DNA of 38,235 nucleotides, taken from IMG/VR virus record IMGVR_UViG_2563366949_000011. The stretch is one strand, 5' to 3'. The stretch comes from a virus. Its lineage: Duplodnaviria > Heunggongvirae > Uroviricota > Caudoviricetes. The notes below the pieces were generated by a model. It was not told the origin of the DNA, did not search any database, and saw only the letters and a list, made by a program, of their open reading frames with translations. The position numbers and the translations under genes were made by a program. Positions within the stretch are counted from its first letter, which is position 1; each line of letters starts with the position of its first letter. Shown one piece after another: positions 20,797 to 38,034 of this stretch.

Positions 20797-20798
20797 GT

Positions 20799-21041
20799 TT
20801 ATGCTCCGGTGGTGAACAGGTCTAACGCTTCCTTCGATTTACGCACCGCTTCGATAGTGCGGGTCGTGATATCTGAATTAGCGCCGCCTGACTGGAAGTG
20901 AATTTTGAATAGCTCAAGCTTCAGTTCGTCAGTGCCGATGAATTGAAATGCTTCTTCTGCGGCTGCGTTCTGGTTCATGACCAGCTTGTAAATCTCTAAC
21001 TGGAATTTCTGTTCTTCAGTCATGGGAATAATCTCTGCCAT
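20799..21041 (-). CDS. Hypothetical protein upstream of the terminase genes
   Basis: 80 aa ATG-initiated ORF, co-oriented and tightly packed with TerS. Confidence 0.5.
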   Translation of the reverse strand: MAEIIPMTEEQKFQLEIYKLVMNQNAAAEEAFQFIGTDELKLELFKIHFQSGGANSDITTRTIEAVRKSKEALDLFTTGA

Positions 21042-21144
21042 TGTTGGCTCCGTTTATCCGTTAAAAGGGATATCAGTTAAGTTATCCCGTGTAGGGTATA
21101 AGCCATTATCAAAGCCACTCTGTAGGGAATGGCTTTTGTAATAA

Positions 21145-21483
21145 CTACTGTTCGCTTAGCTTCTGCTTCAGCAAGTAACCTTCGAGCATCCAGATTTTGT
21201 TTACAGCATTTTGCCGGGCAATCTTCCGACCAATTTCTGCATCAAAGTTTTCCGGGCTTGCACAGGCGCTCTCTCCGGTGACGGTGAAGCCATTTTGTAG
21301 AGTCAATACACAAAATGTCAGCAGAGCCAAACTGTCGTGATAGTCATCGCCAGTTGCAATAGCTCCATCAGCAGCAGTGAAGTACGTTTCCGCAAGAATA
21401 ATGCTTTCGATATGGTCTGGCGTAACGCGCGGGGCGGTTTTGCCTTTCTCAACGATTTCTTTTTCGATTTGCTGGTCGTTCAT
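21145..21483 (-). CDS. Hypothetical phage protein
   Basis: 112 aa ATG-initiated ORF between the moron and the terminase module; no family assigned with confidence. Confidence 0.5.
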   Translation of the reverse strand: MNDQQIEKEIVEKGKTAPRVTPDHIESIILAETYFTAADGAIATGDDYHDSLALLTFCVLTLQNGFTVTGESACASPENFDAEIGRKIARQNAVNKIWMLEGYLLKQKLSEQ

Positions 21484-21661
21484 AATTATGACCCTGTAGA
21501 GTAGTTGCTTGATTAGGATGTCTTTCCATCAGTCCGCCACCACAAAGAATCTTTTTTGCCATAAGGCAGGAGGTTCATCTTTCAGTGGCTGCCAGTGTTA
21601 TTTCCCCACTTTCTGGCTTGGGTTGTTTCGCTGTACTGCCGTTAATTGATGAGTCCGGGGA

Positions 21662-22147
21662 TTATTTCAGTTCGTTACCAGGCATTTCTTTTAGCTCTTT
21701 CAAATGACAACGATTGAGACTAAACCACTCCCCGTGCGACCTATAGTTGTAATATTTTTGGTGCAATTTGGTTTCAAGCTCTCTATCGGCCGGAATCTTT
21801 GCAATTAGATTTAGCTTCCCACCACTCATGCGAGATATCTCTGAAATTCGTTTATTAACCCTGCGACTAAACCCTATTTTTGTTAGCCCACTATCTTCAG
21901 CATGCAGAACGTACACATATGATTTTTGCGAAGCACTGGGTGCGACTTTGTTGTAATTAATCATGTCAAACATGAAGCCTTGCTTTAGCAAAGTTTCAAA
22001 AAAGATAGAATTAACACACCCATTCCTTCTCAGCTCTGCACTTAGCTTGTCAATTTCCTCTATGATGTCGCCAGACCCCTTTCCACTTATAAGAAAATCT
22101 TGGTACATGCGACCAATTCTTGAGGTAATTTCAACAAAGTTGTTCAT
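21662..22147 (-). CDS. T5orf172 (GIY-YIG-like) domain protein, moron between the lysis cassette and the terminase module
   Basis: 161 aa; C-terminal half YVYVLHAEDSGLTKIGFSRRVNKRISEI...LHQKYYNYRSHGEWFSL fits the T5orf172 signature (VYIL...KIG.T...EWF). Region is visibly AT-rich. Confidence 0.6.
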   Translation of the reverse strand: MNNFVEITSRIGRMYQDFLISGKGSGDIIEEIDKLSAELRRNGCVNSIFFETLLKQGFMFDMINYNKVAPSASQKSYVYVLHAEDSGLTKIGFSRRVNKRISEISRMSGGKLNLIAKIPADRELETKLHQKYYNYRSHGEWFSLNRCHLKELKEMPGNELK

Positions 22148-22293
22148 AGCGTTTACCTTTTAGAAAGATGAGCCTGTTCGCACAGAAAAGCCGTCCCCGA
22201 GATGGTCGCCACCATATACGGCAATTCTCAGGCTCAGCTTTCTGAAAGACTCGGGATTGTTACGCGCTGCGATGCGCGGTTTACTGCAGATGT

Positions 22294-22317
22294 AAAAAAG
22301 CCCCGCAAATGCGAGGC
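22294..22317 (-). terminator. Putative rho-independent terminator downstream of the lysis cassette
   Basis: Imperfect hairpin GCCCCGCA-AA-TGCGAGGC at 22300-22317 preceded on the + strand by AAAAAA (22294-22299), a U-run in minus-strand sense. Confidence 0.4.
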
Positions 22318-22491
22318 TAAATCCTGGTATTTGTAATGACTGGCTCTTATCTCAACGCAGCCCCTTACCGCGCGCCAGATGCTCAATATCAAGCATCAGC
22401 AATGAGATGTTTAATCTGGATTCACTCCAGAAGTGATCACCACCCTGTCTACAGAGCCAGATGTGAAGGATGATGAGTAAAATTATCGCTA

Positions 22492-22929
22492 TCATCGAAG
22501 GCATTGCGTCCTGATGTACTCCTGCAGGTAGTTAACCTGCGCGGTTATCCTGTCGATTCCACTTCGGAGACGGTAATAATTGAGTTCAGCATCTGCTGTA
22601 AGTCTTGGGTTTTCTCCATCGCCCATGCTGCTGGCTCCGGTCGTTGACTTTGCACAGGTGGCGGCGACTTGCAGGCGCTTACGCCCAGCAGAAACATCAG
22701 CACGGAGACTTTCGATAGTCGCGTTAGCATCAGCAAGCTCCTTTGTGTATCTTGCGTCGAGTTCTGCTACATCACGTTGACGCTTCCGCATATCAGCGAT
22801 GATGGATGTGGCTTTATCGCGCTGCTCTTTGTAGGCGATTGCATTATCACGGTAATGATTAACAGCCCATGACAGGCAGACGATGATGCAAATAATCAGA
22901 GCGGAGATAATCGCGGTGACTCTGCTCAT
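22492..22929 (-). CDS. Rz: Rz i-spanin
   Basis: 145 aa with an N-terminal membrane anchor and coiled-coil body; follows the endolysin with overlapping start/stop as in lambda. Confidence 0.85.
22545..22730 (-). CDS. Rz1: Rz1 o-spanin lipoprotein, embedded in Rz in another frame
   Basis: ATG at 22730; [20 protein letters not shown] with a lipobox-like VSAC followed by the proline-rich [13 protein letters not shown]. Confidence 0.7.
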
Positions 22930-23402
22930 ACCTCAATCTCTCTGACCGTTCCGCCAGCCTCTTTGAATTTTGCAATCAGGTTGTCAGCCTTATGCTCGAA
23001 CTGACCATAACCAGCGCCCGGCAGTGAAGCCCAGATATTGCTGCAACGGTCGATTGCCTGACGAATATCACCGCGGTCAATCATCGGTAAAGCGCCACGC
23101 TCTTTAATCTGCTGCAATGCCACAGCGTCCTGACTTTTCGGAGAGAAGTCTTTCAGACCAAGCTGCTTACGGTAGGCATCCCACCAACGGGAAAGAAGCT
23201 GGTAGCGTCCGGCGGCTGTTGATTTGAGTTTTGGGTTTAGCGTGACAAGCTTGCGAGGGTGATCGGAGTAATCAGTAAATAGCTCTCCGCCTACAATGAC
23301 GTCATAACCATGATTTCTGGTTTTCTGCCGTCCGTTATCAGTTCCCTCTGACCACGCCAGCATATCGAGGAACGCCTTACGTTGATTATTGATTTCCACC
23401 AT
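22926..23402 (-). CDS. R: Endolysin, lambda R-type lytic transglycosylase
   Basis: 158 aa; [49 protein letters not shown] matches my recollection of lambda R. Confidence 0.9.
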
Positions 23403-23709
23403 CTTCTACTCCGGCTTTTTTAGCAGCGAAGCGTTTGATAAGCGAACCAATCGAGTCAGTACCGATGTAGCCGATGAACACGCTCGTTATATAAGCGAGA
23501 TTGCTACTTAGTCCGGCGAAGTCGAGAAGGTCACGAATGAACCAGGCGATAATGGCGCACATCGTTGCGTCGATTACTGTTTTTGTAAACGCACCGCCAT
23601 TATATCTGCCGCGAAGGTACGCCATTGCAAACGCAAGGATTGCCCCGATGCCTTGTTCCTTTGCCGCGAGAATGGCGGCTAACAGGTCATGTTTTTCTGG
23701 CATCTTCAT
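23386..23709 (-). CDS. S: Holin, lambda S-type (class I, dual-start)
   Basis: 107 aa; [39 protein letters not shown]... matches my recollection of lambda S107 almost residue for residue. Confidence 0.9.
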
Positions 23710-23828
23710 GTCTTACCCCCAATAAGGGGATTTGCTCTATTTAATTAGGAATAAGGTCGATTACTGATAGAACAAATCCAGGCTACTGTGTTTAGTAATC
23801 AGATTTGTTCGTGACCGATATGCACGGG

Positions 23829-23863
23829 CAAAACGGCATGAGGTTGTTAGCGCAACCTCATGC
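23829..23863 (-). terminator. Candidate late-leader terminator (tR'-like) between Q and the holin
   Basis: Perfect 12-bp stem GGCATGAGGTTG/CAACCTCATGCC with 6-nt loop at 23834-23863, followed in minus-strand sense by GUUUU (23829-23833). Confidence 0.35.
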
Positions 23864-24305
23864 CACCCGCTTTCACGAAGGTCATGTGTAGAAGGCCGCA
23901 GCATAACTATCACTGATGAATTCAGGATAGCCAGTGGCTACGGCTCAGGTTGGGTTGTGGCGGTCGGTGCTGAACTCCGACTTAATGACGATAGGCGTGT
24001 ACCGACGCCTCGTTTTACTTCCTCCGCTTTCACGGCTTCACCCTAGACCAGCTTTACGAAATCCTCGTAAACCTAACCGCGGCAGATATGACCGGCACGG
24101 TGTGCCATATCACGGACCGGCGGGTGTCTCGTTCACCTGATTAACGCATCAGCCTGCGTATTCACCACAACGATAAGAGTACTGCGCGGCACCTTTCACC
24201 AATTCCGCGAGGTCTGCGGGTTCAATGCTCTTACCTGTTGTGCAAACAAAAAAGCCACCGTTGCAACTTAAGAGTCACTAACGGCAGCTTACCTTCTAAT
24301 TATGG

Positions 24306-24824
24306 CTAAATGGATAATTGCATGTCAAGGTTTTTAACAGCAACATGCTTAACTTTCTCAACACGTTTACGCATTTTGAAAGCATTTTGCATTGGCTGGT
24401 ATAAAACAAATAATGACGCTTTCAGGATGTCGTCAATTTCGTTTCTACAGGTTGCCAGTGAAGGTTTTCTCCATCCCTCGCCACCACGTCCACACATCTT
24501 GCGTGGCTTTGCAGTCGCGTGATAGTAGGATGCAATTGCTCGCTTAGATGAACCATGAGCGTAGTAGCTGAGGAGGATGCCAAAGGCTTTCTTGTCAATG
24601 TACATGACGGAATCAACGACCTGAGAAATCAACATTCCATCATCATCATTACACATTGGCCTTGTCATAATTCTTCCCGGCTCTACGCTCTCCATGAACT
24701 TCGCTATTACGCTGCTCATGCGCTTTTCCAGACGACCTGAATAAACCCATGCGCCCCACAGTTCAAGCCAGCCATTCAGCCACTCGTGCTGCTCTTTGGT
24801 GAGGTTTAGTTCTCTTATGCTCAT
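24306..24824 (-). CDS. Late antiterminator Q (phage 21 / QuuD-like family)
   Basis: 172 aa; WLELWGAWVYSG...TRPMCNDDDGMLI...SYYAHG follows the pattern I recall for E. coli QuuD (ERWGAWAA...RPQCCDDDAM...DYYVVG); sits between ninH and the late leader. Confidence 0.7.
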   Translation of the reverse strand: MSIRELNLTKEQHEWLNGWLELWGAWVYSGRLEKRMSSVIAKFMESVEPGRIMTRPMCNDDDGMLISQVVDSVMYIDKKAFGILLSYYAHGSSKRAIASYYHATAKPRKMCGRGGEGWRKPSLATCRNEIDDILKASLFVLYQPMQNAFKMRKRVEKVKHVAVKNLDMQLSI

Positions 24825-25009
24825 CGTCTTCCCCTCTTGCCTTGTTTGACCATCAGGACGCCGTTAACTATTACGTGACGCTCGCCTTTGCTGTCTCGGT
24901 TGTACTTGAGCACTGTTCCTCTTGCGCAGGAAAGCATCCTCGCCACTTCGGTCTGATTGCCTCGTGTCTGGATAAGAAGCTCTGGTATCGTTTGAATTGT
25001 GGCGTTCAT
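24821..25009 (-). CDS. ninH: NinH-like protein
   Basis: 62 aa; YGNQTEVARMLSCARGTVLKY and VIVNGVLMV resemble lambda NinH. Confidence 0.65.
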   Translation of the reverse strand: MNATIQTIPELLIQTRGNQTEVARMLSCARGTVLKYNRDSKGERHVIVNGVLMVKQGKRGRR

Positions 25010-25368
25010 GCGTTCTCCAGTTCGGTGATTTTTATTCCAAGCCGTCCGCCTGGTACTTTCACACCACGAATTACGCGAATGTCATCGAATTGCTCGTCGT
25101 CTTCCGCAAATCCGGCGTGGATAAGGGAGTCGAGTAAACCTTTCAGGATGTTGTCGAGGTCGCGGCGGCGGGAGTCTGGAACGTCTGCGATGACTTTGAT
25201 ACGGAGTCGTGATTTGGTGAAAATGTCTAACTTGAGTTGGCGGATGATTTGCTGAACGTCTTTTCGGTATTTCTGGCCTTTATCGCTTATGTAATATTGG
25301 CTTCCCCGTCTTCGCCAGTAGGTATTCACCGACGGCGGGTATGGAAGCACAAACTGATATTCGTTCAT
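25006..25368 (-). CDS. rusA: RusA-type Holliday junction resolvase
   Basis: 120 aa; PPSVNTYW, RRRDLDN and GGRLGIKITELEN align with E. coli RusA motifs. Confidence 0.85.
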   Translation of the reverse strand: MNEYQFVLPYPPSVNTYWRRRGSQYYISDKGQKYRKDVQQIIRQLKLDIFTKSRLRIKVIADVPDSRRRDLDNILKGLLDSLIHAGFAEDDEQFDDIRVIRGVKVPGGRLGIKITELENA

Positions 25369-25655
25369 GACTTAATCTTCCCCTCCCTCAGCAGTATCGC
25401 CTGCGTTCTGATCACGCCTTCGAGGTGGTAAAGTCTGGCGTCTTTGTTGTCGAGATTATGGGTGCGTCGGTCGATTTCATCGTGACACGCACTACAAGCC
25501 CATGCACCGATCAGGTCGTCAGGCTTCATTCCCGTTCCGCAAATTCCAGCCATCCGGTAATGTGCCAGAACTGTAGTTTCAGGGTTGCCATTGCATACGC
25601 CGTAAATACGTACCTGACATTCTCTTCCGCGCGCTTCTTTGCGTAGGTTAGCCAT
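25365..25655 (-). CDS. YbcO-like DUF1364 protein (predicted nuclease)
   Basis: 96 aa; MANLRKEARGRECQVRIYGVCNGNPETTVLAHYRMAG resembles DLP12 YbcO. Confidence 0.65.
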   Translation of the reverse strand: MANLRKEARGRECQVRIYGVCNGNPETTVLAHYRMAGICGTGMKPDDLIGAWACSACHDEIDRRTHNLDNKDARLYHLEGVIRTQAILLREGKIKS

Positions 25656-26377
25656 TAAGCAGCCTCCCCTGTTACTTTCAGCATTCCGTTATCGAGCAGC
25701 TTTCTGGTCAGCCACTGTTGACCACGCCCGGTGATTTTTGTGGTGAACGATATCTGTATTCCGTGATTTGTGTTGACCGCTGTTTCTTTCACTGTGAAAT
25801 AGCCGCGATCCATATATTCCTGCATTGGCACATTGCGCCGGGAACCTGAAGCAATAAGGATTTTGTGATCACGCATCCACGCAAACAGTTTGTTTTGACC
25901 AATACCAACAACCTTTGCAAAGTTTCCAATCAAAATTCCGCTGGCCTCGCCAACGCGATCGGCAAACTCAACTTTAGGTGCGACAATTGCGAGCTGGTTT
26001 TCCAGTTGCATTTTCTGCTCAGCAAGATCGGCAGCAAGGCGCAACGCTTCCGGTAGCGTTTTGGGGATATTAACCGCAGCTTCTTCAAGCTCTCGCCAGC
26101 GGTCAACAAGGCGAGCGGTGAACTCTGGCGACAACTGGGCAACAACGACAATACTGTCTCGCTTACCTTGTTCGCCCTCGAAGACGTAATGCTCGTACTG
26201 AACATTGAACCCTAAGTTATTGATTCTTTCGGAAACCTCAATTTGAGGAAGCCGGATAACACCATTTTTAGCCAGCGTTTCGATGGTACGTTTCACATTG
26301 TCATGACGCTTACCAACCAACTCAGCAATTTCAATGCTTGTCATTTTGATGGCATTGCCATTCATTAACTCATTCAT
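25655..26377 (-). CDS. Antirepressor-like protein with Rha-type N-terminus and KilAC-type C-terminal domain, inserted in the nin region
   Basis: 240 aa; N-terminus MTSIEIAELVGKRHDNVKRTIETL is a Rha-family signature; the C-terminal half resembles the KilAC antirepressor domain. Confidence 0.65.
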   Translation of the reverse strand: MNELMNGNAIKMTSIEIAELVGKRHDNVKRTIETLAKNGVIRLPQIEVSERINNLGFNVQYEHYVFEGEQGKRDSIVVVAQLSPEFTARLVDRWRELEEAAVNIPKTLPEALRLAADLAEQKMQLENQLAIVAPKVEFADRVGEASGILIGNFAKVVGIGQNKLFAWMRDHKILIASGSRRNVPMQEYMDRGYFTVKETAVNTNHGIQISFTTKITGRGQQWLTRKLLDNGMLKVTGEAA

Positions 26378-26546
26378 CGTCTTCTTCCTCGTACATTGAG
26401 CTATTCGGATCGCTCATCAGTTCTGCGCAGCAGTGCTCACACATGTGAACTTCCAGCACATGCAGCTTCTGACCGCAGTTAGCGCACGTTAAAGCTCGCT
26501 CGACGCTTTCTTTCTGGCATTGAAGGGATTGGGATGGGCTAAGCAT
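26370..26546 (-). CDS. ninF: NinF-like protein (not in the supplied ORF track, below its length cutoff)
   Basis: Hand translation of the minus strand from ATG 26546: [58 protein letters not shown], 58 aa, matching my recollection of lambda NinF; stop overlaps the downstream start. Confidence 0.65.
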   Translation of the reverse strand: MLSPSQSLQCQKESVERALTCANCGQKLHVLEVHMCEHCCAELMSDPNSSMYEEEDDE

Positions 26547-26892
26547 TATTGGCGTCCTGCATCATGAGAAAGACAATCATGGCGGCGCGGAGTTGGTTTT
26601 CATCTTGAGTCATATGATATGGGGTGCTATCACTGCCAACTTTTCTATGCGCTGCCTTCCATAATCCATTTTCTGGCGCTGGAATAATGCCAATTCTGTT
26701 CTCTACGATAATCGGCTCTGCGTCTTCAGGATTATTGCAGTAGTCGTACCATCGATAATTACCATTTGATTCATTGCCGACAGACCGTCCATCTGCGTTG
26801 TGCGGATAACCTAATGGTATTGCCCCCACTATCGCTTTAAATACTCGCTTGTTAATTTCAAAATCACTTAACTGTGAATAATCCATTGTCAT
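26539..26892 (-). CDS. Hypothetical nin-region protein at the ninE/ninX position
   Basis: About 117 aa from ATG 26892 ([18 protein letters not shown]...), start adjacent to the ninD stop. Assignment is by position only. Confidence 0.5.
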
Positions 26893-27065
26893 TTCCTCGC
26901 GCGATGTCTTAGCCACCGGATATCCCACAGGTGAGCCGTGTAGTTGAAGGTTTTTACGTCAGATTCTTTTGGGATTGGCTTGCGTTTATTTCTGGAGCGT
27001 TTCGTTGGAAGGTATTTGCAGTTTTCGCAGATGATGTCGGTGATACTTCGTCGCTGTCGTCTCAT
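26889..27065 (-). CDS. ninD: NinD-like protein
   Basis: 58 aa from ATG 27065: [52 protein letters not shown], as recalled for lambda NinD. Confidence 0.7.
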
Positions 27066-27502
27066 GCCGCCCTGTCTCCCCATCGCGCTTTCCATTCGAG
27101 AGCCAGTCGCGCTTCGTCTGACCACTTAACGCCACGCTCTGTACCGAATGCCTGTATAAGCTCTAATAGCTCCGCAAATTCGTTTACACGCATCCTGCTG
27201 GTTGACTGGCCTATTACCACAAAGCCATTCCCGGCAAGGTTAGGAACAACATCCTGCTGCTTTAATGCTGCGGTAAACACACACTTCCAGCTTTCTGCAT
27301 CCAGCCAGCGACCATGCCATTCAACCTGACGAGAGACGTCACCAAGGCAAGCCCAAAGCTTTCGATTCTGGTCTAAGCTGCGGTTGCGTTCCTGAATGGT
27401 TACTACGATTGGTTTGGTTGGGTCTGGAATGATTTGCTGTACTGCGTGAATAGCGTTCTGCTGATGGATGTGGCTTCTTAGTTCAAACGTTAGTTTCCTC
27501 AT
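27062..27502 (-). CDS. ninB: NinB (Orf-family recombination mediator)
   Basis: 146 aa, near-identical over its length to my recollection of lambda NinB. Confidence 0.85.
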
Positions 27503-27719
27503 GGGATGAACTCCAGTTTGCGATGTTAAATTCCCATTTAATTACCTTTGCATACCCAATTTTGAACCCATCAATACCTATCCACCGATTGCCACTCCAA
27601 TAAGCTGTACCACTTTGCTTGAAATGATGTGGATGCCTAGATTGAGTGGTCACAGTTACAGGTAAATATGGCTTCGGGTATTCCCCATTCCCTGGATAAC
27701 CAGATTTAATTTTGCTCAT
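27483..27719 (-). CDS. Hypothetical protein upstream of ninB
   Basis: 78 aa; ATG overlaps the stop of the upstream ORF (ATGA). Confidence 0.5.
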   Translation of the reverse strand: MSKIKSGYPGNGEYPKPYLPVTVTTQSRHPHHFKQSGTAYWSGNRWIGIDGFKIGYAKVIKWEFNIANWSSSHEETNV

Positions 27720-27907
27720 TGATACCCTCTCTCACTTAATCGCGCCCACGCTTCGTTAAACTCTTCTCGGGTTGCGCCGGATTTTCTTTCTTCAAACATC
27801 ATGCATTCGCTGATGTCTCCCCATGACTTTGGTCGCTTTTCAGCGAACAGATCATCCCATTCGAATACCCAGCGTCCTGATTTTCGGTATGGTAAATGGT
27901 CAGCCAT
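27716..27907 (-). CDS. Hypothetical small protein
   Basis: 63 aa ATG-initiated ORF (MADHLPYRKSGRWVFEWDDLF...); overlaps the 3' 109 nt of ORF 27799..28041 in another frame, so one of the two is probably wrong or the locus is frameshifted. Confidence 0.4.
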   Translation of the reverse strand: MADHLPYRKSGRWVFEWDDLFAEKRPKSWGDISECMMFEERKSGATREEFNEAWARLSERGYQ

Positions 27908-28041
27908 GTTGTGCTGTTCGCTGGATACCCATAGAGAACTTCGACTTTTTGATCACGGTCTTTATGCTTTTTCAGCAGGATAAAGCCAGCAACCAGCGAA
28001 GCTCCGGCAAGAATGATGATTGGAATTTGCCAGTCAGCCAC
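27799..28041 (-). CDS. Hypothetical small membrane protein (GTG start), possibly part of a frameshifted gene
   Basis: 80 aa with hydrophobic segment IPIIILAGASLVAGFILL. Its start lies inside a 27-codon ATG ORF (28034..28117) that begins ATGA-overlapped with the helicase stop; a GGGGG run sits at the frame junction. Confidence 0.3.
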   Translation of the reverse strand: MADWQIPIIILAGASLVAGFILLKKHKDRDQKVEVLYGYPANSTTWLTIYHTENQDAGYSNGMICSLKSDQSHGETSANA

Positions 28042-28113
28042 ACTTCCCTCTCCCCCAAATAAAAAGGCCTGCGATTACCAGCAGGCCTGTTACAAGCTCA
28101 GTGATGTAGATGG

Positions 28114-29490
28114 TCATACGTCAGCCCCTTGTGCATATCGTCTGCCACGCGCAGCAGGTGCATTTGATGCTGTGCAAATCTGTCTGGCTTCATCCTGGTC
28201 ACATGCAACAAAGTGTCCGTTACAGAACCGCTGGTAAACCGTACCAAGTGAGCCAAAACGGTTTTTCGTCACGATGATTTCAGCAAATGGCGCGGCGCTA
28301 CTGTTCTCGTCATATACCGCTTCACGATAGAGCATGATGATTGAGTCTGCGTCCTGCTCAATGCTTCCTGAATCACGCAAATCTGCGTTTGTCGGGCGTT
28401 TGTTTGGTCGCTTCTCAACATCGCGCGAAAGCTGACTCAGGGAGATAACGGGCGTTTTCAGGTCTTTCGCCATCGCCTTAAGGCTTCCGGAGATGTGAGC
28501 AATTGCGAGGTCGTTGCGATCTGCTTTCGGCTTCTCAATCAGGCCAAGATAATCCGCCATGATGAGTGACAGGTTTGGATTTTCCTGTTTGTGCCGTTCT
28601 GCGATTGAGCGTATTTCTTCGACCGATAACCGCGAGGCATCGACTACCCATACATCCAAATCTGCAAGCTGACTCATGCCGTTAGCAACACGCGCCCAGC
28701 CTTCATCATCCATCGATGCAGGATTTCGCAGTACGCTAACCGACATCCTCCCGGCGTTGGCAATGCTTCGCTCTGCAATCTGCAATGCGCTCATTTCCAT
28801 TGAGAAAATCAATACCCCGCGCCGGACGTCAGAACCAGGAATAACGCGGCTTGCAACGCCTTCGGCAATCTTCAGCGCCAGCTCGGTTTTCCCCATACCA
28901 GGACGAGCAGCGATTATCACTAGGTCTTCCGCGTTCATCCCTCCGGTGATGGCATCAAGTTCTTCGATTCCGGTCTTCAGGGTATCTGACTCTTCTCCGT
29001 TCCTCAGACGCCTGTCAAGCGTGTCGGTGTAGTCAGTGATGATTTCCCCTAACCGTACAGGTTTAACCTCGTCACGGGGCTTTCTGATGGCTGAAAGACG
29101 CTTTACAAGTTCATCCATCGCCTGACTCGATGCGTCGATGGTTCCGCTCTGAATTGGTTCACGCATTTCATCCATGATTTCCAGCACCAGACGGCGGTGA
29201 TAGTTATCCTCGACCATTCCGGCATATCCCTTCAGGTTTGCGGCACTCGGGCAGTTTTTGCTGGTCATCAGGATTGACGTGAAATGCTCCTCTCCGCACG
29301 CTTCGGCAACCATCAGCGCGTCGATTAGGTTTCTGTTTCGCGCCTGCTTGCGGATAACCTCGAAGGCTTTCCGGTAGAGCGGAATTGAAAACGCTTCCGG
29401 CTCAAGCGTTGCCAGAACGTCACTGGCGGTTGGTGTTAATCCACCAATCAGCAGGCCACCGATAACGCTCGCTTCGATATCCTGTCTCAT
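28114..29490 (-). CDS. DnaB-family replicative helicase (P22 gene 12-like)
   Basis: 458 aa; Walker [16 protein letters not shown], Walker B-like [12 protein letters not shown], and DnaB-like N-terminal domain; start overlaps the initiator stop. Confidence 0.9.
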
Positions 29491-30434
29491 GCAATCCCCC
29501 TGTCTGCAAACTTCCCTTCCCGAACTCCCGTTAACGAGTCTTCCCTCAGCAGGTAATCAAAATCTGCCGTCCAGCCAGTGTCGTTGTCTCCGAAGTAAAA
29601 CGGCTTGGCCTGATGCACAAACGCCCTGACATACGCTCTGAAACCGTCCACGTTTGGCGTTTTCAGTTGCGGGATGATTTTCTTCAGGCGACGTTTGCGT
29701 TTCTCGTTGAGCGCAACAGCGTGTGGCAGTCTGTCACCGACTTCGGTGTTGTAGGCGTTCAGGAAAGATTCGTAGTCGATTCGTTCTGCCCTTCGACGTT
29801 CAGGTTTATCCTGCCCATCTCCTCCCCCATTGGGGGGTAGGGGGGTATTATTTATATTCTTGTTAATACCTTCTTGTTCATGATGTGCGGTTGTTTGTGC
29901 GGCTTCATGTGCGCTTTCATGTGCGGCATGTGCGCTGAAAGCCGCTCCATTACTGACTTCGCCATGTGCGGCATCATGTGCGGTTGTTTGTGCGGCTTCA
30001 TGTGCGGGTAAATTGTCCATTTTTTGAGCATATTCATGGTAATTTGTGATGGTTATCACACGACCTTTTTGCTTCTCTCCATCAATGGAGATCATCCCCT
30101 CTTTCACAAAAACCTGAAGCATCCGCTCAACCTGATCACGGCTTGCTGGCTTGCCATGCCTGTCGCATAACTGAAGACCTAAATCAGCTGCTGTCACAAC
30201 CAGTTGACCGGGTTGCAGATGCCATTCATGACCTTTGAAATTCGCTTTGTATGGCTTTCTGGCGGCATTCAGGAGAAGGTTTTCCCACAGGGTGCGAAGA
30301 TAAACATCTTTCGCCCATGACTGTTTCAGAATGCTCCGGTACAACGGAATGTAACCAGTTTTCTGGTTCTCCATCCTGTTGCTCCTGCGCTCGTGTGCGG
30401 CGCTGAAATCGTAGATTTTTGCTGTATTGCTCAT
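29487..30434 (-). CDS. Replication initiator (lambda O / P22 gene 18 functional analogue) containing the origin iterons
   Basis: 315 aa. Alternative start at ATG 30374 ([16 protein letters not shown]...) has a better RBS (AGGAG). Contains the internal peptide repeat [10 protein letters not shown] encoded by the iterons. Confidence 0.7.
29845..30007. repeat. Putative origin of replication: iterons inside the initiator gene plus adjacent AT-rich stretch
   Basis: Two near-identical ~33-bp direct repeats (29877-29912 and 29971-30006, ...ATGTGCGGTTGTTTGTGCGGCTTCATGTGCG) plus further ATGTGCG(G/C) copies at about 29917-29937 and 29961-29982; G-tracts and AT-rich sequence at 29827-29875. Confidence 0.5.
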
Positions 30435-30436
30435 AA

Positions 30437-30709
30437 CTACCTGCCTTGACGAAAGACCTTAAGAACATCGTTAAACTGACTTACGGATATGTCTTCTTTG
30501 AGAAGCTTTTCCAGAAATGCGTTTGGAATGAACGTATATCCCTCCTCTTTTGGGAGAGACGGGAGCAACGCCCTCGCCTCAGCTTTCAGAAGCTCAGTTC
30601 TGGCAACTTTCACAAAAGAGATTTGAGTTCTTTCATCAATGGAACGAAGGAAGCGCAAACGCTTAGCTTCTTTGTGTGTATCAGGTGGATTAAAGCCTTT
30701 GTTTCGCAT
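30437..30709 (-). CDS. Hypothetical protein between cII and the replication initiator gene
   Basis: 90 aa from ATG 30709 (MRNKGFNPPDTHKEAKRLRFLRSIDER...). The longer ORF-track version overlaps cII out of frame and is not credible. Confidence 0.45.
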   Translation of the reverse strand: MRNKGFNPPDTHKEAKRLRFLRSIDERTQISFVKVARTELLKAEARALLPSLPKEEGYTFIPNAFLEKLLKEDISVSQFNDVLKVFRQGR

Positions 30710-30731
30710 ATAATTACCTCGCTGGATGTTG

Positions 30732-31025
30732 TTAAAATTCCATTTGTATTTGATCAGAACGCTCGGTTGCCGCCGGGCGTTTTTTATTGGTGAGAATCGA
30801 AGCAACTTGTCGTGCCAATCGAGCCATGTCGTCGTCGACAACACCCCATTCAAGAACAGCAAGCAGCATTGAGAACTTTGGAATCCAGTCCCTCTTCCAC
30901 CTGCTGATCTGCGACTTATCAACGCCCACAGCTTCCGCTGTCTTCTCAGTTCCAAGCATTGCGATTTTGTTAAGCAACGCACTCTCGATTCTTAGAGCCT
31001 CGTTGCGTTTGTTTGCACGAACCAT
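30732..31025 (-). CDS. cII: CII transcriptional activator (lambda type)
   Basis: 97 aa from ATG 31025: MVRANKRNEALRIESALLNKIAMLGTEKTAEAVGVDKSQISRWKRDWIPKF..., essentially as I recall lambda CII. The ORF-track 5' extension runs over nutR and is rejected. Confidence 0.85.
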   Translation of the reverse strand: MVRANKRNEALRIESALLNKIAMLGTEKTAEAVGVDKSQISRWKRDWIPKFSMLLAVLEWGVVDDDMARLARQVASILTNKKRPAATERSDQIQMEF

Positions 31026-31082
31026 ATGTAAGTATTTCCTTAACAAATAAGAAGTTATGCGCATCAACTTATGCGCGTTGTA

Positions 31083-31128
31083 TTCCCGCATTTCGGCGGG
31101 AATGAGGACCATGACTGTTAAAGAGCAA
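31083..31128 (-). promoter_or_regulatory. nutR-like site: boxA plus boxB hairpin
   Basis: Minus-strand sense reads TGCTCTTTAACA (boxA-like; lambda boxA is CGCTCTTACACA) followed by the hairpin TTCCCGCCGAAATGCGGGAA; the same boxA/boxB pair recurs in the leftward operon. Confidence 0.6.
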
Positions 31129-31133
31129 TTTGC

Positions 31134-31319
31134 TTATGCCGCTTTGCGGTAAGCGCTTTCTTGATACTTCAGGGCGCCAGCTGTAACGACTTCCAGTCGA
31201 TAGGCGTCTTTCTCTGGGATGACTTCCTTCCACTGAGAGACTGCTGCGTCGCTAATGCCTAACGCTTTAGCTACAGCACGCTGGGTTCCGAAGTGGTCGA
31301 TAACATCTTTCTTGTACAT
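31134..31319 (-). CDS. cro: Cro-like repressor
   Basis: 61 aa with HTH GTQRAVAKALGISDAAVSQW; divergent from c2 across the operator region. Confidence 0.8.
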   Translation of the reverse strand: MYKKDVIDHFGTQRAVAKALGISDAAVSQWKEVIPEKDAYRLEVVTAGALKYQESAYRKAA

Positions 31320-31399
31320 AGACTCGCTCCGAAATTAAAGAACACTTAAATTATCCACTAAAGGAATCTTAAGTCAAGTTTATTTAAGATGTCTTAACT
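31320..31399. promoter_or_regulatory. OR operator region with pR (and presumably pRM)
   Basis: P22-type operator-like sequences ATTAAAGAACACTTAAAT (31334-31351) and ATTTAAGATGTCTTAA (31382-31397). On the minus strand, TTGACT (complement of 31372-31377) and ATAATT (complement of 31349-31354) with 17-bp spacing form a pR-like promoter for cro. Confidence 0.6.
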
Positions 31400-32050
31400 A
31401 TGAAAACTCAATTGATGGGAGAGCGCATTCGCGCTCGGAGAAAAGAACTCAAGATCAGGCAGGCCGCACTTGGAAAGATGGTCGGCGTGTCTAATGTTGC
31501 CATATCTCAGTGGGAACGCTCTGAGACAGAGCCAAATGGAGAGAATCTTCTCGCCCTGGCTAATGCGTTGAAGTGTTCCCCTGACTATCTGATGAAAGGA
31601 GAGGAAAGTCTTTCAAACATTGCCTATCACAGTAGGCATGATCCAAGAGGGTCATACCCTCTGATTAGCTGGGTGAGCGCAGGATGCTGGATGGAAGCTG
31701 TAGAACCATATCATAAGCGTGCAATAGATAACTGGTACGATACAACCGTAGACTGTTCAGAAGATTCGTTTTGGTTGGACGTGAAGGGAGACTCAATGAC
31801 GGCTCCGGCCGGTCTCAGTATCCCTGAAGGAATGATAATACTCGTCGATCCTGAAGTAGAGCCGCGTAACGGGAAACTGGTAGTTGCAAAGCTCGAAGGA
31901 GAAAACGAGGCAACTTTCAAGAAGTTAGTTATTGATGCAGGCAGGAAGTTTCTAAAACCACTTAACCCACAATATCCGATGATCGAGATCAACGGAAACT
32001 GCAAAATCATCGGCGTAGTTGTCGATGCAAAACTAGCAAACCTTCCATAA
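31400..32050 (+). CDS. c2: C2-type prophage repressor (P22 C2 / lambda CI family, LexA-like autocleaving)
   Basis: 216 aa; near-identical over most of its length to my recollection of P22 C2 (MNTQLMGERIRARRKKLKIRQAALGKMVGVSNVAISQWERSETEPNGENL...). Confidence 0.9.
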   Translation: MKTQLMGERIRARRKELKIRQAALGKMVGVSNVAISQWERSETEPNGENLLALANALKCSPDYLMKGEESLSNIAYHSRHDPRGSYPLISWVSAGCWMEAVEPYHKRAIDNWYDTTVDCSEDSFWLDVKGDSMTAPAGLSIPEGMIILVDPEVEPRNGKLVVAKLEGENEATFKKLVIDAGRKFLKPLNPQYPMIEINGNCKIIGVVVDAKLANLP

Positions 32051-32074
32051 GGGGGCATTCGCCCCTTTTTTTTA
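32051..32074 (+). terminator. Rho-independent terminator immediately after c2
   Basis: GGGGGC-ATTC-GCCCC hairpin (32051-32065) followed by a 9-T run. Confidence 0.7.
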
Positions 32075-32141
32075 TTTCCTTTAAAAATCAAAGCCAAACT
32101 TAAGTTACGAAAGAAAATTTAAGTTTTCTTCAAAAATACTC

Positions 32142-32170
32142 TTGACCATTAATTAAAGAGATCTTAAATT
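32142..32170 (+). promoter_or_regulatory. pL-like promoter embedded in OL operator repeats
   Basis: TTGACC (32142-32147) and TAAATT (32165-32170) with 17-bp spacing; surrounded by TTAAG-containing operator-like half-sites between 32095 and 32180. Confidence 0.45.
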
Positions 32171-32216
32171 TAAGCCATCAGCAGGACGCTGGTAGCCAAA
32201 CGGAACAGATTGGCAG

Positions 32217-32258
32217 GCTCTTTAACATTGATGGGATTGTCCCGCCGAAATGCGGGAA
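32217..32258 (+). promoter_or_regulatory. nutL-like site: boxA plus boxB hairpin
   Basis: GCTCTTTAACA followed by TCCCGCCGAAATGCGGGAA, the same boxA/boxB pair as nutR in transcript sense. Confidence 0.6.
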
Positions 32259-32658
32259 CCAAAGAGTAGTTGGCTTTGGGATTGGATGAATGAGCAGGCT
32301 GATGCTCGACCAATGTATAAACAGCGCTCATGGCAAGCAGTAACCAATCTGCGCCTCAAGACAGCGTCACTGGTAGTGCGGGCGCTCTAACCAGTAAGCC
32401 GGAGTTCAGCACCGGCCATCCAATCGCCAAAGTCAATTCCATAGGCGTTATGCAGCCGCCACCATATTCAAGAAAGCTGCACAAGAGGTAGGAGGATTTA
32501 TGTGAATACTTACATTCAGTTGAGAGATTAATTAAATAGAACTGATCGAGCAGAGTCCATGAAGGATCATAAATGCTCTTCCATCCCCGTCTAATTGGCG
32601 GGGATGGAAACCACTTTGTAATAAAAAAAATTCCAAAGTTGTTTCATCGGAGGTCAAC

Positions 32659-32958
32659 ATGACAGTAGTCATTACATATCTGGCTGACGATAACGCCAGA
32701 AATCGCCGCAGAGCACGCAGACAGGCTCAACGTGAACAGGCAATGCAAGAACAGCGACTGGCGCGAAAGATTGCGCTAAAGCTCTCTGGTTGCGTCAGAG
32801 CAGACAAAGCAGCATCACTCGGAAGCCTTCGCTGCAAGAAGGCAGAAGAAGTCGAGAGTAAACAGAATCGTATTTACTACCGCAAGCCACGCAGTGAAAT
32901 GGGGGTGACTTGTGTTGGTCGCCAGAAAATGAAATTAGGAAGCAAACCACTTATTTGA
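32659..32958 (+). CDS. N-like antitermination protein with arginine-rich motif
   Basis: 99 aa, GGAGG RBS; N-terminal ARM DDNARNRRRARRQAQREQ; first gene downstream of pL/nutL. Confidence 0.6.
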   Translation: MTVVITYLADDNARNRRRARRQAQREQAMQEQRLARKIALKLSGCVRADKAASLGSLRCKKAEEVESKQNRIYYRKPRSEMGVTCVGRQKMKLGSKPLI

Positions 32959-33036
32959 GGTGATATATGGAAGAAGAATTTGAAGAGTTCGAAGAGCATC
33001 CGCAGGATGTGATGGAACAATACCAGGACTATCCTT

Positions 33037-33237
33037 ATGACTACGACTATTGATAAGAATCAATGGTGTGGACAATTCAAGCGATGCAATGGATGCAAGC
33101 TGCAATCGGAATGCATGGTTAAGCCTGAAGAAATGTTTCCTGTAATGGAAGATGGGAAATATGTCGATAAATGGGCAATACGAACGACGGCAATGATTGC
33201 CAGAGAACTTAGTAAACAGAATAACAAGGCTGCCTGA
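33037..33237 (+). CDS. Hypothetical Cys-rich early protein
   Basis: 66 aa (CGQFKRCNGCKLQSEC); no clear RBS; its stop codon lies in the loop of a terminator-like hairpin. Confidence 0.4.
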   Translation: MTTTIDKNQWCGQFKRCNGCKLQSECMVKPEEMFPVMEDGKYVDKWAIRTTAMIARELSKQNNKAA

Positions 33238-33295
33238 TGGTGGCCTTTATTTTTGTCCGTAAATAATTTCATGCTTATTACAATCAAGGTGATAT

Positions 33296-33718
33296 ATGGA
33301 AGAACAAGCAAACAAGATTCTCGTAGAACTTCTGCAAAAAGCCAGTAATGGAATAGACGCGGCTGTTTCATTTAGCCAGGCACAGATTCCTGATGTTGTT
33401 CGTCAGTTGCTAACATGGAGTTTTGTCCATAGCGCACTTTTCCAAGTGGCTGGGTTGTTGCTTTTAATTGCAGCAATGAAACTTCCTAGTTTTGCAAGAA
33501 CGGCAAGAAATAATGGCGAGAGATGGACGTCTTTAGATGGATGTCCAAACGATAGATATTTTATATCTTCGTTTTATTACGATATATGCACTGTATTTGC
33601 TCCTATATTTGGCTCAATTATTGGCGTTTTAATTATTGCCTTCAATTTCGAATGGTTGAAGATTTGGCTTGCACCTAAGTTATTCCTAATTGAATATGCA
33701 GCATCATTGGTTAAGTAA
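33296..33718 (+). CDS. Membrane protein in the early-left operon (position comparable to sieB-type exclusion genes)
   Basis: 140 aa with RBS AGGTGA; hydrophobic helices LFQVAGLLLLIAAM and IFGSIIGVLIIAF. Confidence 0.5.
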   Translation: MEEQANKILVELLQKASNGIDAAVSFSQAQIPDVVRQLLTWSFVHSALFQVAGLLLLIAAMKLPSFARTARNNGERWTSLDGCPNDRYFISSFYYDICTVFAPIFGSIIGVLIIAFNFEWLKIWLAPKLFLIEYAASLVK

Positions 33719-33722
33719 TTTC

Positions 33723-33748
33723 AGGCCGCATAGTCGGCCTTTATTTTT
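33723..33748 (+). terminator. Rho-independent terminator
   Basis: AGGCCG-CATAGT-CGGCCT hairpin followed by TTATTTTT. Confidence 0.55.
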
Positions 33749-33867
33749 GGCATAAACAACAGAATAAACACTGCACTGTGTATTCATTCCAACGAGTGAA
33801 TACACGGAGCAATGTCGCTCGTAACTAAACAGGAGCCGACTTGTTCTGATTATTGGAAATCTTCTTT

Positions 33868-33891
33868 GCCCTCCAGTGTGAGGGCTTTTTT
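33868..33891 (+). terminator. Rho-independent terminator
   Basis: GCCCTC-CAGTGT-GAGGGC hairpin followed by TTTTTT. Confidence 0.55.
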
Positions 33892-33957
33892 ATATGCATA
33901 CCAATAACGCTTCACTCGAGGCGTTTTCGTTATGCAATCAAACAGAAGGAGCATCCT

Positions 33958-34128
33958 ATGCAACAGTTCGCTATTGCAGGGGCGGCATCGGTTCGCCCTT
34001 TCAACCCGATTTTATCGGTACAGCATTCACGAAAAAACATTTTAACCGGAGCAGACTTTAAACAACCAAGAATGAAAAGCTTGCTCGAAAAGCTTTGGGA
34101 TATTTTGAAACAACAAGGCCGTCCATGA
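33958..34128 (+). CDS. Small hypothetical early protein
   Basis: 56 aa from ATG 33958 with AGGAG RBS; the ORF-track 5' extension crosses a terminator and is rejected. Confidence 0.45.
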   Translation: MQQFAIAGAASVRPFNPILSVQHSRKNILTGADFKQPRMKSLLEKLWDILKQQGRP

Positions 34129-34283
34129 GTTTTACGGATAACTGGTCAGACGAAGAATTCATTCGTCAGATAAAAGAATTAATCGGTAACGAAGGAGATA
34201 TTCATGTCACTTGCAACCACAGTGAAGGAGAGCAAGTTACAGAGACGCATGTACACGCAGAAAGCTCTCTGGTATCGCCATAA
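34125..34283 (+). CDS. Small hypothetical early protein (kil/arf-position)
   Basis: 52 aa from ATG 34125, overlapping the upstream stop (ATGA); lies immediately upstream of erf. Confidence 0.4.
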   Translation: MSFTDNWSDEEFIRQIKELIGNEGDIHVTCNHSEGEQVTETHVHAESSLVSP

Positions 34284-34384
34284 TGGTGACCGCGAAGGAA
34301 TGCGGGTATGCCTTAATTTGTCCCGAGTCGAAGTATTAAATCAGCGTTATTTCCTTGGGCCGTGTCCATTCTGAGAGCAATCAT

Positions 34385-34990
34385 ATGAGCAAAGAATTTT
34401 ACGCAAGACTGGCAGCTATTCAGGAGAATCTGAACGCGCCAAAGAATCAGTACAACTCATTCGGCAAATATAAATACAGAAGCTGCGAAGATATTCTTGA
34501 AGGCGTTAAGCCGTTACTGAACGGTCTGTTTTTATCAATCAGCGATGAAGTTGTGTTGATTGGTGATCGGTATTACGTGAAAGCCACGGCAACTATTACC
34601 GATGGCGAAAACAGTCATACGGCAACCGCTCTTGCACGAGAGGAAGAAAGCAAGAAAGGAATGGATTCTGCACAAGTTACGGGAGCTACAAGCTCTTATG
34701 CACGCAAGTATTGCCTCAATGGTTTGTTCGGCATTGATGATGCGAAAGATGCAGATACAGACGAGCATAAACATCAGCAGAACGCAGCAGCAAAGCAATC
34801 AAAACCATCACTTACACCTGAACAGGTTCTAAAAGCATTCACTGACGCAGCAATGCAGAAAAACACCGTAGAAGAGCTTAAACAGGCGTTCGCCAAAGCG
34901 TGGAAGATGCTCGAAGGGACGCCGGAGCAGCACAAAGCGCAGGACGTTTACAACATCAGACGAGACGAATTAGAAGGGGCAACTGCTTAA
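34385..34990 (+). CDS. erf: Erf single-strand annealing recombinase
   Basis: 201 aa from ATG 34385: MSKEFYARLAAIQENLNAPKNQYNSFGKYKYRSCEDILEGVKPLL..., closely matching my recollection of P22 Erf. The ORF-track start at 34355 is a TTG. Confidence 0.85.
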   Translation: MSKEFYARLAAIQENLNAPKNQYNSFGKYKYRSCEDILEGVKPLLNGLFLSISDEVVLIGDRYYVKATATITDGENSHTATALAREEESKKGMDSAQVTGATSSYARKYCLNGLFGIDDAKDADTDEHKHQQNAAAKQSKPSLTPEQVLKAFTDAAMQKNTVEELKQAFAKAWKMLEGTPEQHKAQDVYNIRRDELEGATA

Positions 34991-35373
34991 TGGCACATTC
35001 GATTACAGTAAGACTAAACAAACCCGCAAGAGAGTTTCAGGGCGGGGAAAATATCGGATTCAACATCCGTGCTGGCGTTCAGTATTACGATCGCCAGACA
35101 AAAAAGAAAGAATGGACAAACTACAGCGCCGTTGTATTTGCCAAGCCGGGAGCGCAAGCGGATTACTATCGTAGCGTTCTGGTTGAAGGAGGCATTGTAG
35201 AAATTACCGGAGAAAACATCAGGGTTGATGTTTATCAGGGGCAAAATGGTCAATCAATCACTCTTGAATTACTGAATGCAAAGATTGGATTTGCAACTTC
35301 AGGAAACAGCCAACAGCAGCAAAGTAGCAATCATCAAAATAATCCTGAATACGACGATTCCATCCCATTCTGA
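34990..35373 (+). CDS. ssb: Single-stranded DNA-binding protein (SSB-like)
   Basis: 127 aa from ATG 34990 (overlapping the erf stop, TAATG); OB-fold-like body and a Gln-rich linker ending in the acidic tail DDSIPF, like the bacterial SSB tail DDDIPF. Confidence 0.65.
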   Translation: MAHSITVRLNKPAREFQGGENIGFNIRAGVQYYDRQTKKKEWTNYSAVVFAKPGAQADYYRSVLVEGGIVEITGENIRVDVYQGQNGQSITLELLNAKIGFATSGNSQQQQSSNHQNNPEYDDSIPF

Positions 35374-35396
35374 TTTAGAAAAATAAGGATTTAATT

Positions 35397-35693
35397 ATGC
35401 CAGCGCCTTTGTATGGTGCGGATGACCCGCGCCGCTGTTCCGGCAATTCCGTATCGGAGGTGCTGGATAAATTCAGAAAAAACTACGATCGAATAATGTC
35501 TCTACCGCAGGAAACGAAAGAGGAAAAGGAATTTCGCCACTGTATATGGCTTGCAGAGAAAGAAGAACGCGAGCGAATTTACCAGACATCAATCCGACCA
35601 TTCCGCAAAGCCACATATACCCACTTCCCTGAATATATCGACCCGCGCCTGCGTAATTACCGCTCACGCTATGGCGCTATCAGTAATGACTGA
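35397..35693 (+). CDS. Hypothetical protein downstream of erf/ssb (position of the P22 abc anti-RecBCD genes)
   Basis: 98 aa ATG ORF with AAGGA RBS. Position is suggestive only; I cannot confirm the sequence against Abc2. Confidence 0.45.
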   Translation: MPAPLYGADDPRRCSGNSVSEVLDKFRKNYDRIMSLPQETKEEKEFRHCIWLAEKEERERIYQTSIRPFRKATYTHFPEYIDPRLRNYRSRYGAISND

Positions 35694-35787
35694 GGAATTT
35701 ACCATGAGAGGACTTGCTTAAGAGAAAGAGTTTCGGTTCTGTTAATGACAACAAATATCTGAATGCGATGTGGCGGAGTGGGAAGAA

Positions 35788-36306
35788 ATGAAACAAATGT
35801 CACTAATTGAGATGGATGGTTTTCTGAAAGGTAAATGCATCCCAAGTGATTTAAAGGTTAACGAAACAAACGCTGAATACCTTGTCCGTAAGTTCGGTGA
35901 ACTTGAATCAAAACTGGAAACGGCGTTGCGGGAGTGTAGTTCTGCTGGAATCACGATTGATAACCTTGAGGCTAAATGCGCGAAGATGGCTGCTGAAAAT
36001 ACCTCACTTAAGCAATCTGAGAAGGAATTTAATGACTTTTGTCGTGAGGAGTTTAGCGAATGGGAAGATGATGTTACTGAAACCCCAGCCACCGATGCTT
36101 TTCTGGCTGAAGTGCGGGCGCAGGGGGTGGATGCTGCTATAGAAGCTGCAAAAAATCTGGTGGCCCAAGAATATGAGTATAAGGATTTCAAAGCGGCGCA
36201 GAGTGATTGCTGTATGCACCCTGGTTCAGACCTGGTAGGGAAGGTTGAAATGACTGAGTGGTTAGTTGACTTTGCTGCCCAGCTTCGCAAAGGAGGCAAC
36301 CAGTGA
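35788..36306 (+). CDS. Hypothetical acidic protein (ea region)
   Basis: 172 aa from ATG 35788 with GGAG RBS; the ORF-track start at 35770 is a GTG without RBS. Confidence 0.5.
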   Translation: MKQMSLIEMDGFLKGKCIPSDLKVNETNAEYLVRKFGELESKLETALRECSSAGITIDNLEAKCAKMAAENTSLKQSEKEFNDFCREEFSEWEDDVTETPATDAFLAEVRAQGVDAAIEAAKNLVAQEYEYKDFKAAQSDCCMHPGSDLVGKVEMTEWLVDFAAQLRKGGNQ

Positions 36307-36602
36307 CTGTATGTCTTATTGATAAACGTCGACGTGGGCAACAAATACCATCTGTTGAAATGCCGAATCACACATGGTTTTGCGTACTTGATATCGATGG
36401 TATGGATACGTTGGTTGACACTCGTCATTACTGCGATACCGCAACAGCTACTCCGGCGAAAGCAAAGAAAATGGCTGCTCTGATAGAAAACTGGACTCCA
36501 CCTGATGGTTGGTGCAATGGGAATGATCGAGATTGGCACGAAAAAATGAAGGGCTATATCTGCGATTTTTTACGTAAATGCAACGGCTTCAGGGGGATGT
36601 GA
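36303..36602 (+). CDS. Hypothetical protein (ea region)
   Basis: 99 aa, GTG start with AAGGAGG 7 nt upstream, overlapping the upstream stop. Confidence 0.5.
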   Translation: MTVCLIDKRRRGQQIPSVEMPNHTWFCVLDIDGMDTLVDTRHYCDTATATPAKAKKMAALIENWTPPDGWCNGNDRDWHEKMKGYICDFLRKCNGFRGM

Positions 36603-36603
36603 T

Positions 36604-37737: not shown

Positions 37738-37809
37738 TAATCCTCGCACTCGCGGGGATTTCTTTTATCTGAACTCGCTACGGCGGGTTTTGTTTTATGG
37801 AGATGATAA

Positions 37810-37990: not shown

Positions 37991-38034
37991 TTGCCTGATT
38001 TGCAGGTTCGATTCCCTATTCGGAGATAGCACTC

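Follow-up and report, generated by a model that had tools for sequence, protein, structure and literature searches.

Three small ORFs overlap one another on the minus strand between the gene for a DnaB-type replicative helicase and ninB, and their arrangement raises the question of whether they are one gene broken by an indel, a gene read through by programmed frameshifting, or genuinely overlapping small genes. The window (the whole stretch of DNA analyzed, 38,235 nt) is a lambdoid, UTI89-like prophage of Escherichia coli; its positions 20000–38235 show 99.3–99.4% identity, over 90–91% of the length, to a prophage of UTI89, APEC O18 and EC13. The early-right operon lies on the minus strand in the order cII, O, helicase gene, nin genes and Q, and the relatives' copy of the helicase gene is annotated as "replicative DNA helicase". 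The layout given in the original prediction agreed with the ORF list: ORFs of 27 codons (starting with ATG), 80 codons (GTG; ORF80) and 63 codons (ATG; ORF63) were present at the positions in Table 1. The ATG of the 27-codon ORF (28117–28115) overlaps the helicase TGA (28116–28114) in an ATGA, and ORF80 and ORF63 share 109 nt (27799–27907). A run of five G residues (28056..28052) lies 11 nt upstream of the GTG, within the 3′ end of the 27-codon ORF.

Table 1. Features of the helicase–ninB interval, with coordinates in the window.
Feature	Coordinates	Strand	Basis or remarks
DnaB-type replicative helicase gene, 458 aa	28114..29490	-	Pfam DnaB_C 9.4e-78, DnaB 4.4e-13; ORF list
ninA mini-ORF, 27 codons	28034..28117	-	Lambda nucleotide match; phrog_5907, 1.6e-19; Sf6 annotation; NCBI name
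Intrinsic terminator tR2, inside ninA	28057..28088	-	Hairpin AGGCCTGC-TGGTAATC-GCAGGCCT (28088..28065), then T-tract TTTTTATTT
G5 run and purine-rich tract GGGGGAGAGGGAAGT	28042..28056	-	Directly upstream of the gene 46 GTG; unaltered in the window
Frameshifted Sf6 gene 46 family gene (phrog_5903), most likely a pseudogene	27716..28041	-	326 nt, against 327 nt in the intact gene
ORF80	27799..28041	-	Native residues 1–51 (transmembrane helix, start of the conserved core) plus 29 out-of-frame residues
Single-base deletion site	27889..27890	-	Alignment column 237; difference list for L084; C (G on the plus strand) missing
ORF63	27716..27907	-	Native residues 52–108, preceded by six residues (MADHLP) that start at a chance out-of-frame ATG
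orf78, 78 codons, phrog_29435	27483..27719	-	ORF list and PHROG match
ninB (orf) recombination mediator gene	27062..27502	-	Pfam NinB 3.8e-54; downstream limit of the module

Comparison with related phages revealed a single ORF of 108 codons in place of the ORF80–ORF63 pair. A megablast search of the region against phage records returned Shigella phage Sf6 and Salmonella phage Oslo, which match exactly 28117..27712. At the homologous position both carry a single 327-nt CDS, namely gene 46 in Sf6 (AAQ12235.1) and AMBK_59 in vB_SosS_Oslo. The three-way alignment of the window, Sf6 and Oslo showed 97.3% DNA identity and exactly one gap, at which the window reads ACCA-TACC and both phages read ACCACTACC. 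Sf6 gene 46 has this identity over the whole gene and shares with the window copy the GTG start, the position after ninA/tR2 and the stop context. The window copy, however, is one C short and is divided into ORFs of 80 and 63 aa, whereas Sf6 gene 46, AMBK_59 and E. coli WP_021823881.1 each encode 108 aa. The deletion changes ACCACTACC to ACCATACC and removes the third base of the His51 codon. Native residues are distributed as 51 in ORF80 and 57 in ORF63, which together make up the 108-aa protein, and the intact gene reads through the ATG of ORF63 in another frame (ACA ACA TGG CTG). When the base was restored, the protein matched phrog_5903 end to end (residues 1–108 of 108, E=8.9e-76). As encoded, no single ORF of the window spans the phrog_5903 family, and the window copy is therefore classed as a pseudogene. 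With the C at 27890/27889 lost, the reading frame changes midway through the conserved core (TWLTIYH before the break and xRxxxWxFEWDDLF after it); the upstream frame then runs on through 29 nonsense codons to give ORF80, and the accidental ATG opens the downstream frame as ORF63, which produces the overlap between the two.

The uninterrupted form is the norm among relatives. In the IMG/VR loci retrieved with the restored protein, the GTG start was present in 80 of 80 and the length of 108 aa in 79, the remaining locus having a premature stop. The deletion was found in none of the 87 complete E. coli genomes that carry the site (61-nt probe across it), all of which have the extra base and a single-frame gene; the extra base was likewise present in all three phage records with the site, and among the E. 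coli matches listed, every one was 1 nt longer than the query. In E. coli PEC011, where PGAP calls one hypothetical protein of 327 nt, the missing base is the only difference from the window within gene 46. When 30 family members with identities as low as 36% were aligned, the conserved core proved continuous across the position of the break and had invariant residues to either side of it (Y37, G38, Y39, P40, W46, L47, T48, Y50 and H51 before it; R53, F60, E61, D63, D64, L65, F66 and R70 after it). In the window this core, YGYP..TWLTIYHxR....W.FEWDDLF..GRP, is interrupted: the deletion falls after H51 and leaves the halves in different frames. Strands 46–52 and 57–63 of the structural model of an intact homologue flank the same point. 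Because the relatives, the conserved core and the model all run intact across the break, the single ORF is to be regarded as ancestral and the window as the carrier of a frameshift. Most relatives have two ORFs here, one of 27 codons and one of 108, rather than the three of the window; the split allele was confined to a minority lineage.

The idea of one gene broken by an indel thus held for ORF80 and ORF63 but not for the 27-codon ORF, which on its sequence is lambda ninA, an element separate from the disrupted gene. The 76 nt from its ATG through GGGAAGT align without gaps to lambda 40568–40643, with three substitutions, in ninA codons 5, 8 and 9. The corresponding Sf6 gene 45 is annotated as "similar to phage 21 NinA protein" and is co-extensive with "bsq6; boundary sequence"; inside it is annotated "terminator; homology to phage lambda; tR2". 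The exact 27-aa peptide is deposited in NCBI as "NinA protein [Escherichia coli]". The peptide, MTIYITEL(V/I)TGLLVIAGLFIWGRGK.., has 27 aa in the window and 26 aa in lambda: it ends with ..KCG in the former and with ..KS in the latter, and the conservative I-to-V change relative to lambda is common to other E. coli copies. Searches of Pfam, NCBIfam and PADLOC found no family for the 27-codon ORF. It is kept at 27 codons in 79 of 82 element-bearing loci; lambda has 26 codons, and two loci with indels in the G tract read past the usual stop. By codon position, the variable columns of ninA number 13 at the third, 8 at the first and 6 at the second, which is not significant proof of coding constraint beyond the constraint on terminator DNA. 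Since each piece has strong homologues, in phrog_5907 for the 27-codon ORF and phrog_5903 for the restored gene, the ORF arrangement is not a chance pattern.

The terminator scan placed tR2 within ninA as an 8-pair stem with 6 GC pairs, and the centroid fold gave the same hairpin. The z-score of the 71-nt fold around tR2 was unremarkable, because a short hairpin is not distinctive in a longer context; an Rfam search of 27300–28400 (E<=1) gave no match. In lambda, where ninA/tR2 lies between ren and ninB, the hairpin, T-tract, G5 run and purine tract are identical to those of the window. In both, ninA overlaps its neighbours at either end: its ATG shares bases with the preceding stop codon (ATGA), and its own stop with the start codon that follows. 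The partners differ: upstream is ren in lambda and the DnaB-type helicase gene in the window, and downstream the TGA of the mini-ORF overlaps the ninB ATG in lambda, whereas in the window the next gene is gene 46 with its GTG, which ninA overlaps by 8 nt (GTGGCTGA). The purine tract that precedes the ninB ATG in lambda also precedes the gene 46 GTG in Sf6 and Oslo; 46 of 80 viral loci have it exactly and most of the rest have slightly altered versions, and it is probably the Shine-Dalgarno region of the next gene. As the ninA/tR2 segment matches lambda, the G5 run is part of a conserved post-terminator purine tract that is canonical here and carries no lesion. The suspicion that an indel in this homopolymer had disrupted the gene was accordingly rejected: the missing C lies 160 nt away, in non-repetitive sequence.

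The geometry of ninA and tR2 in the window agrees with that described for lambda, where the tR2 fragment carries the NinA translation start, with 30 bp between the AUG and tR2 and 16 bp between tR2 and the stop (Li et al., PMC4824070). The reporter experiments in that study, which also gave the efficiency of tR2, showed that a ribosome close behind RNA polymerase represses the terminator (Li et al., PMC4824070). According to Kröger and Hobom (1982), as cited in PMC8022706, ATGA chaining is a known property of nin genes. In the window, ribosomes re-initiating at the ATGA would translate across the hairpin, stop on the GTGGCTGA overlap and chain translation to the next gene, and a closely following ribosome could damp tR2, as in the reporter experiments. 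Beyond gene 46, the ATG of orf78 overlaps the gene 46 stop (ATGA), and the end of orf78 overlaps the ninB start by 20 nt. This small ORF moves together with the module and had no family in Pfam, NCBIfam or PADLOC.

We considered it very likely that ORF80 and ORF63 are one accessory gene split by a single-base deletion, that the result is a pseudogene and not a case of recoding, and that the 27-codon ORF is ninA/tR2. This reading depends on the deletion being real. A sequencing or assembly error in a gene that is really intact would explain why the allele was absent from the 87 complete RefSeq E. coli genomes and from the phage records, and why exact-pattern scans for it in representative genomes (genome_contigs) and in viral_contigs found none; the null scans and the count of 0 of 87 did at first suggest a unique allele or an error. 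A protein-level search overturned this view. The protein P0038, identical to ORF80, is recorded from NCBI, ENA, Logan and UniRef; it occurs in 82 index blocks, and examination of 24 contigs from these showed that no fewer than 24 independent contigs, out of separate NCBI, ENA and Logan assemblies, carry the exact 80-aa product. Two of these contigs, L088 and L094, matched the window with 100% identity along 6.2 and 3.8 kb, respectively, the 6.2-kb match being to assembly GCA_052496305.1. Five other backbones with ORF80 have different cro/cII/O genes, nin gene sets and Q types and a helicase allele about 50 substitutions away; these five share an identical block of about 880 nt (28248..27369), deletion included. 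Because the same allele is present on independent contigs and in at least five prophage backbones, and the split haplotype varies by only 0–2 differences over 635 nt, we conclude that the deletion is a true mutation, inherited and fairly young, which homologous recombination has moved between prophages. With the deletion site not being a homopolymer either, an error is very improbable. That at least five backbones carry the identical frameshifted module may indicate more than simple neutral decay of the allele. Loss of the C-terminal domain of gene 46, or the new 80-aa product with its membrane anchor, might benefit lysogens, and recombination might be spreading the allele for that reason; alternatively, low-level -1 slippage at A_AAT might supply a small amount of full-length protein. 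We give either idea only a small chance.

Programmed -1 ribosomal frameshifting, by which ORF80 would be joined to ORF63 and the full-length protein restored, fits the relative position of the two ORFs, since ORF63 occupies the -1 frame with respect to ORF80 and the two overlap for 109 nt; a weak A_AAT site (27882), 7 nt downstream of the deletion, and the persistence of the allele in several backbones also speak for it. However, no slippery heptamer of the X_XXY_YYZ type was found in the ORF80 frame within the overlap. The sole near-canonical motif, G_AAA_AAG (~27975-27967), is upstream, runs straight into -1-frame stops and is present in intact alleles too; we rejected it as a candidate. A shift at the weak A_AAT, which is the sole site close to the lesion, would replace the Y52-R53-K54 segment, including the invariant R53. 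Moreover, the two-frame arrangement is not conserved, the single uninterrupted ORF of the viral loci, Sf6, Oslo, PEC011 and the complete E. coli genomes being the ancestral and overwhelmingly common state, and, given that the split form represents one recent haplotype, there is no sign of a selected frameshift signal. Recoding is, on this evidence, extremely unlikely. The view that the three ORFs are separate overlapping genes, each with its own product, accords with the tight packing of nin-region genes with ATGA overlaps (PMC8022706), and both the 27-codon ORF and ORF80 have been called and deposited as proteins. Against it, no Shine-Dalgarno sequence precedes the ATG of ORF63 in the upstream 20 nt (TATCCAGCGAACAGCACAAC), and its first six codons read gene 46 in the wrong frame. 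The exact 63-aa sequence of ORF63 was not present in a collection of 15 billion proteins; gene callers therefore do not call it. The last 29 residues of ORF80, in turn, are out of frame and have homologues only in the same allele, and relatives have one 108-aa ORF in this place. Three independent products are thus highly improbable, and the split of one gene by a deletion is the reading that we retain.

Alleles of gene 46 that are truncated, frameshifted or fused occur commonly in the database. Those from enterobacterial prophages that are decayed or rearranged (P0016, P0017, P0034, P0040, P0055 and P0057) have lesions at positions other than that of the window, and the fusions of ninA to gene 46 (P0002–P0013) arose via indels in the G-rich tract, a sequence that the window has in unaltered form. 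The suspicion about the G tract thus finds a faint echo elsewhere, since indels of the tract in a few genomes fuse ninA in frame to gene 46 to give ORFs of 133–137 aa. Repeated decay of gene 46 fits a dispensable accessory gene of the nin region, and nin genes are non-essential in the laboratory (PMC5630979). The window copy is most likely a non-functional pseudogene of such a gene.

Conserved boundary sequences such as ninA/tR2 are recombination joints between lambdoid modules, and dispensable nin-region genes decay in prophages; this locus illustrates both. It offers nothing new in kind, ninA/tR2 being already known, and the outcome is a corrected annotation: the 27-codon ORF becomes ninA, with tR2 inside it, and ORF80, now deposited as a separate hypothetical protein, is merged with ORF63 and annotated as a single pseudogene, a frameshifted member of the Sf6 gene 46 family.

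A minor, separate question concerns the gene 46 family. An AlphaFold2 model of the intact homologue P0001 was confident (pLDDT 87.7) and contained a helix at residues 5–27, strands at 32–39, 46–52, 57–63 and 81–84, and a helix at 92–104. The N-terminal helix corresponds to the transmembrane segment that had been noticed in the 80-codon ORF. The protein is thus predicted to consist of an N-terminal transmembrane helix, serving as a membrane anchor, and a small four-stranded sheet with a C-terminal helix; the basic stretch KKHKDRDQK after the first helix suggests, by the positive-inside rule, an N-out, C-in topology. Pfam, NCBIfam and PADLOC searches returned no family for ORF80, ORF63 or the restored gene 46, and neither a sequence-profile search nor a Foldseek search of the PDB gave a significant match for the family. 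In BFVD, the only structural neighbours of this predicted fold were homologues among the uncharacterised proteins of jumbo phage Goslar and of Salmonella phage IME207.

Outside a swapped segment, the window and the Escherichia coli UTI89 prophage (locus L086) were 98.4-99.6% identical. The exchange spans the DNA from within the 5′ part of ninA to the start of ninB: compared with UTI89, a 582-nt module carrying the terminator tR2, gene 46 with its deletion and orf78 has taken the place of a module of 245 nt that encodes a 74-aa cysteine-rich ORF. One breakpoint falls within ninA and the other at the GAGAGGGAAGT-ATG junction of ninB, positions that recombination at boundary sequences would be expected to give. 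An ATGA overlap couples the 78-codon orf78 to the stop of gene 46, and at its other end the ORF shares 20 nt with the start of ninB; it had no match in Pfam, NCBIfam or PADLOC. It accompanies the frameshifted gene 46 module at every deletion-allele locus and is annotated by gene callers at only some of them.

We also observed that the UTI89 prophage has a different ninA allele, whose initial 31 nt are identical to those of the window and are followed by a terminator hairpin wholly unlike that of the window (GGGCTATTTACACAGTAGCCC plus TTTTTTATT), and the mini-ORF remains open (32 aa, MTIYVTELITGAIYTVALFYWIKNDGDPDGHR). Because two unrelated hairpins each sit inside an open ATGA-coupled mini-ORF, there is a hint that the ORF-over-terminator arrangement itself is maintained.

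Several genomes other than that of the window have indels in the T/G-rich tract that follows tR2, and these put ninA and gene 46 into one frame as fused ORFs of 133-137 aa with two hydrophobic segments. These fusion-making indels indicate that the G tract is indel-prone, or error-prone, outside the window; the G tract of the window itself is canonical.

The fold of the intact Sf6 gene 46 family was predicted confidently (pLDDT 87.7; AlphaFold2 model m0510b8c19a64, family alignment A3), and the PDB held no significant match to it. Among its homologues are proteins of the jumbo phage vB_EcoM_Goslar, at 34% identity, and of Salmonella phage IME207. Gene 46 represents a family of small phage proteins, predicted to be membrane-anchored, found across very different phage types.

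Two copies of the motif (G/A)TGGCTGAC are present, one at the GTG where gene 46 truly starts (VADW) and the other at the accidental ATG that opens ORF63 (MADH), the downstream-frame piece of gene 46, so that both ORFs seem to begin 'MAD'. This shared start looks like a coincidence.

In the prophages of E. coli EC13 (L085) and UTI89, close relatives of window 20000-38235, RefSeq flags further frameshifted or partial genes. The prophage lineage of the window carries several decayed genes.

Coordinates and occurrence of the features discussed
Feature	Genome	Position	Strand	Window counterpart	Assignment
Swapped segment	L086	7170-7414		27504-28085	
ninA allele	L086	7349-7444	minus	28034-28117	
orf78	window	27483-27719	minus		phrog_29435
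Motif copies	window	28033-28041; 27899-27907	minus		
Tract in fusion proteins P0002-P0005, P0007, P0010, P0013	E. coli, E. fergusonii, Salmonella Lille			28042-28059	
Replication protein O	L085				frameshifted or partial
TolA-like gene	L085 and L086				frameshifted or partial
DUF2737, ead/Ea22 fragments	close relatives (L085/L086)				frameshifted or partial
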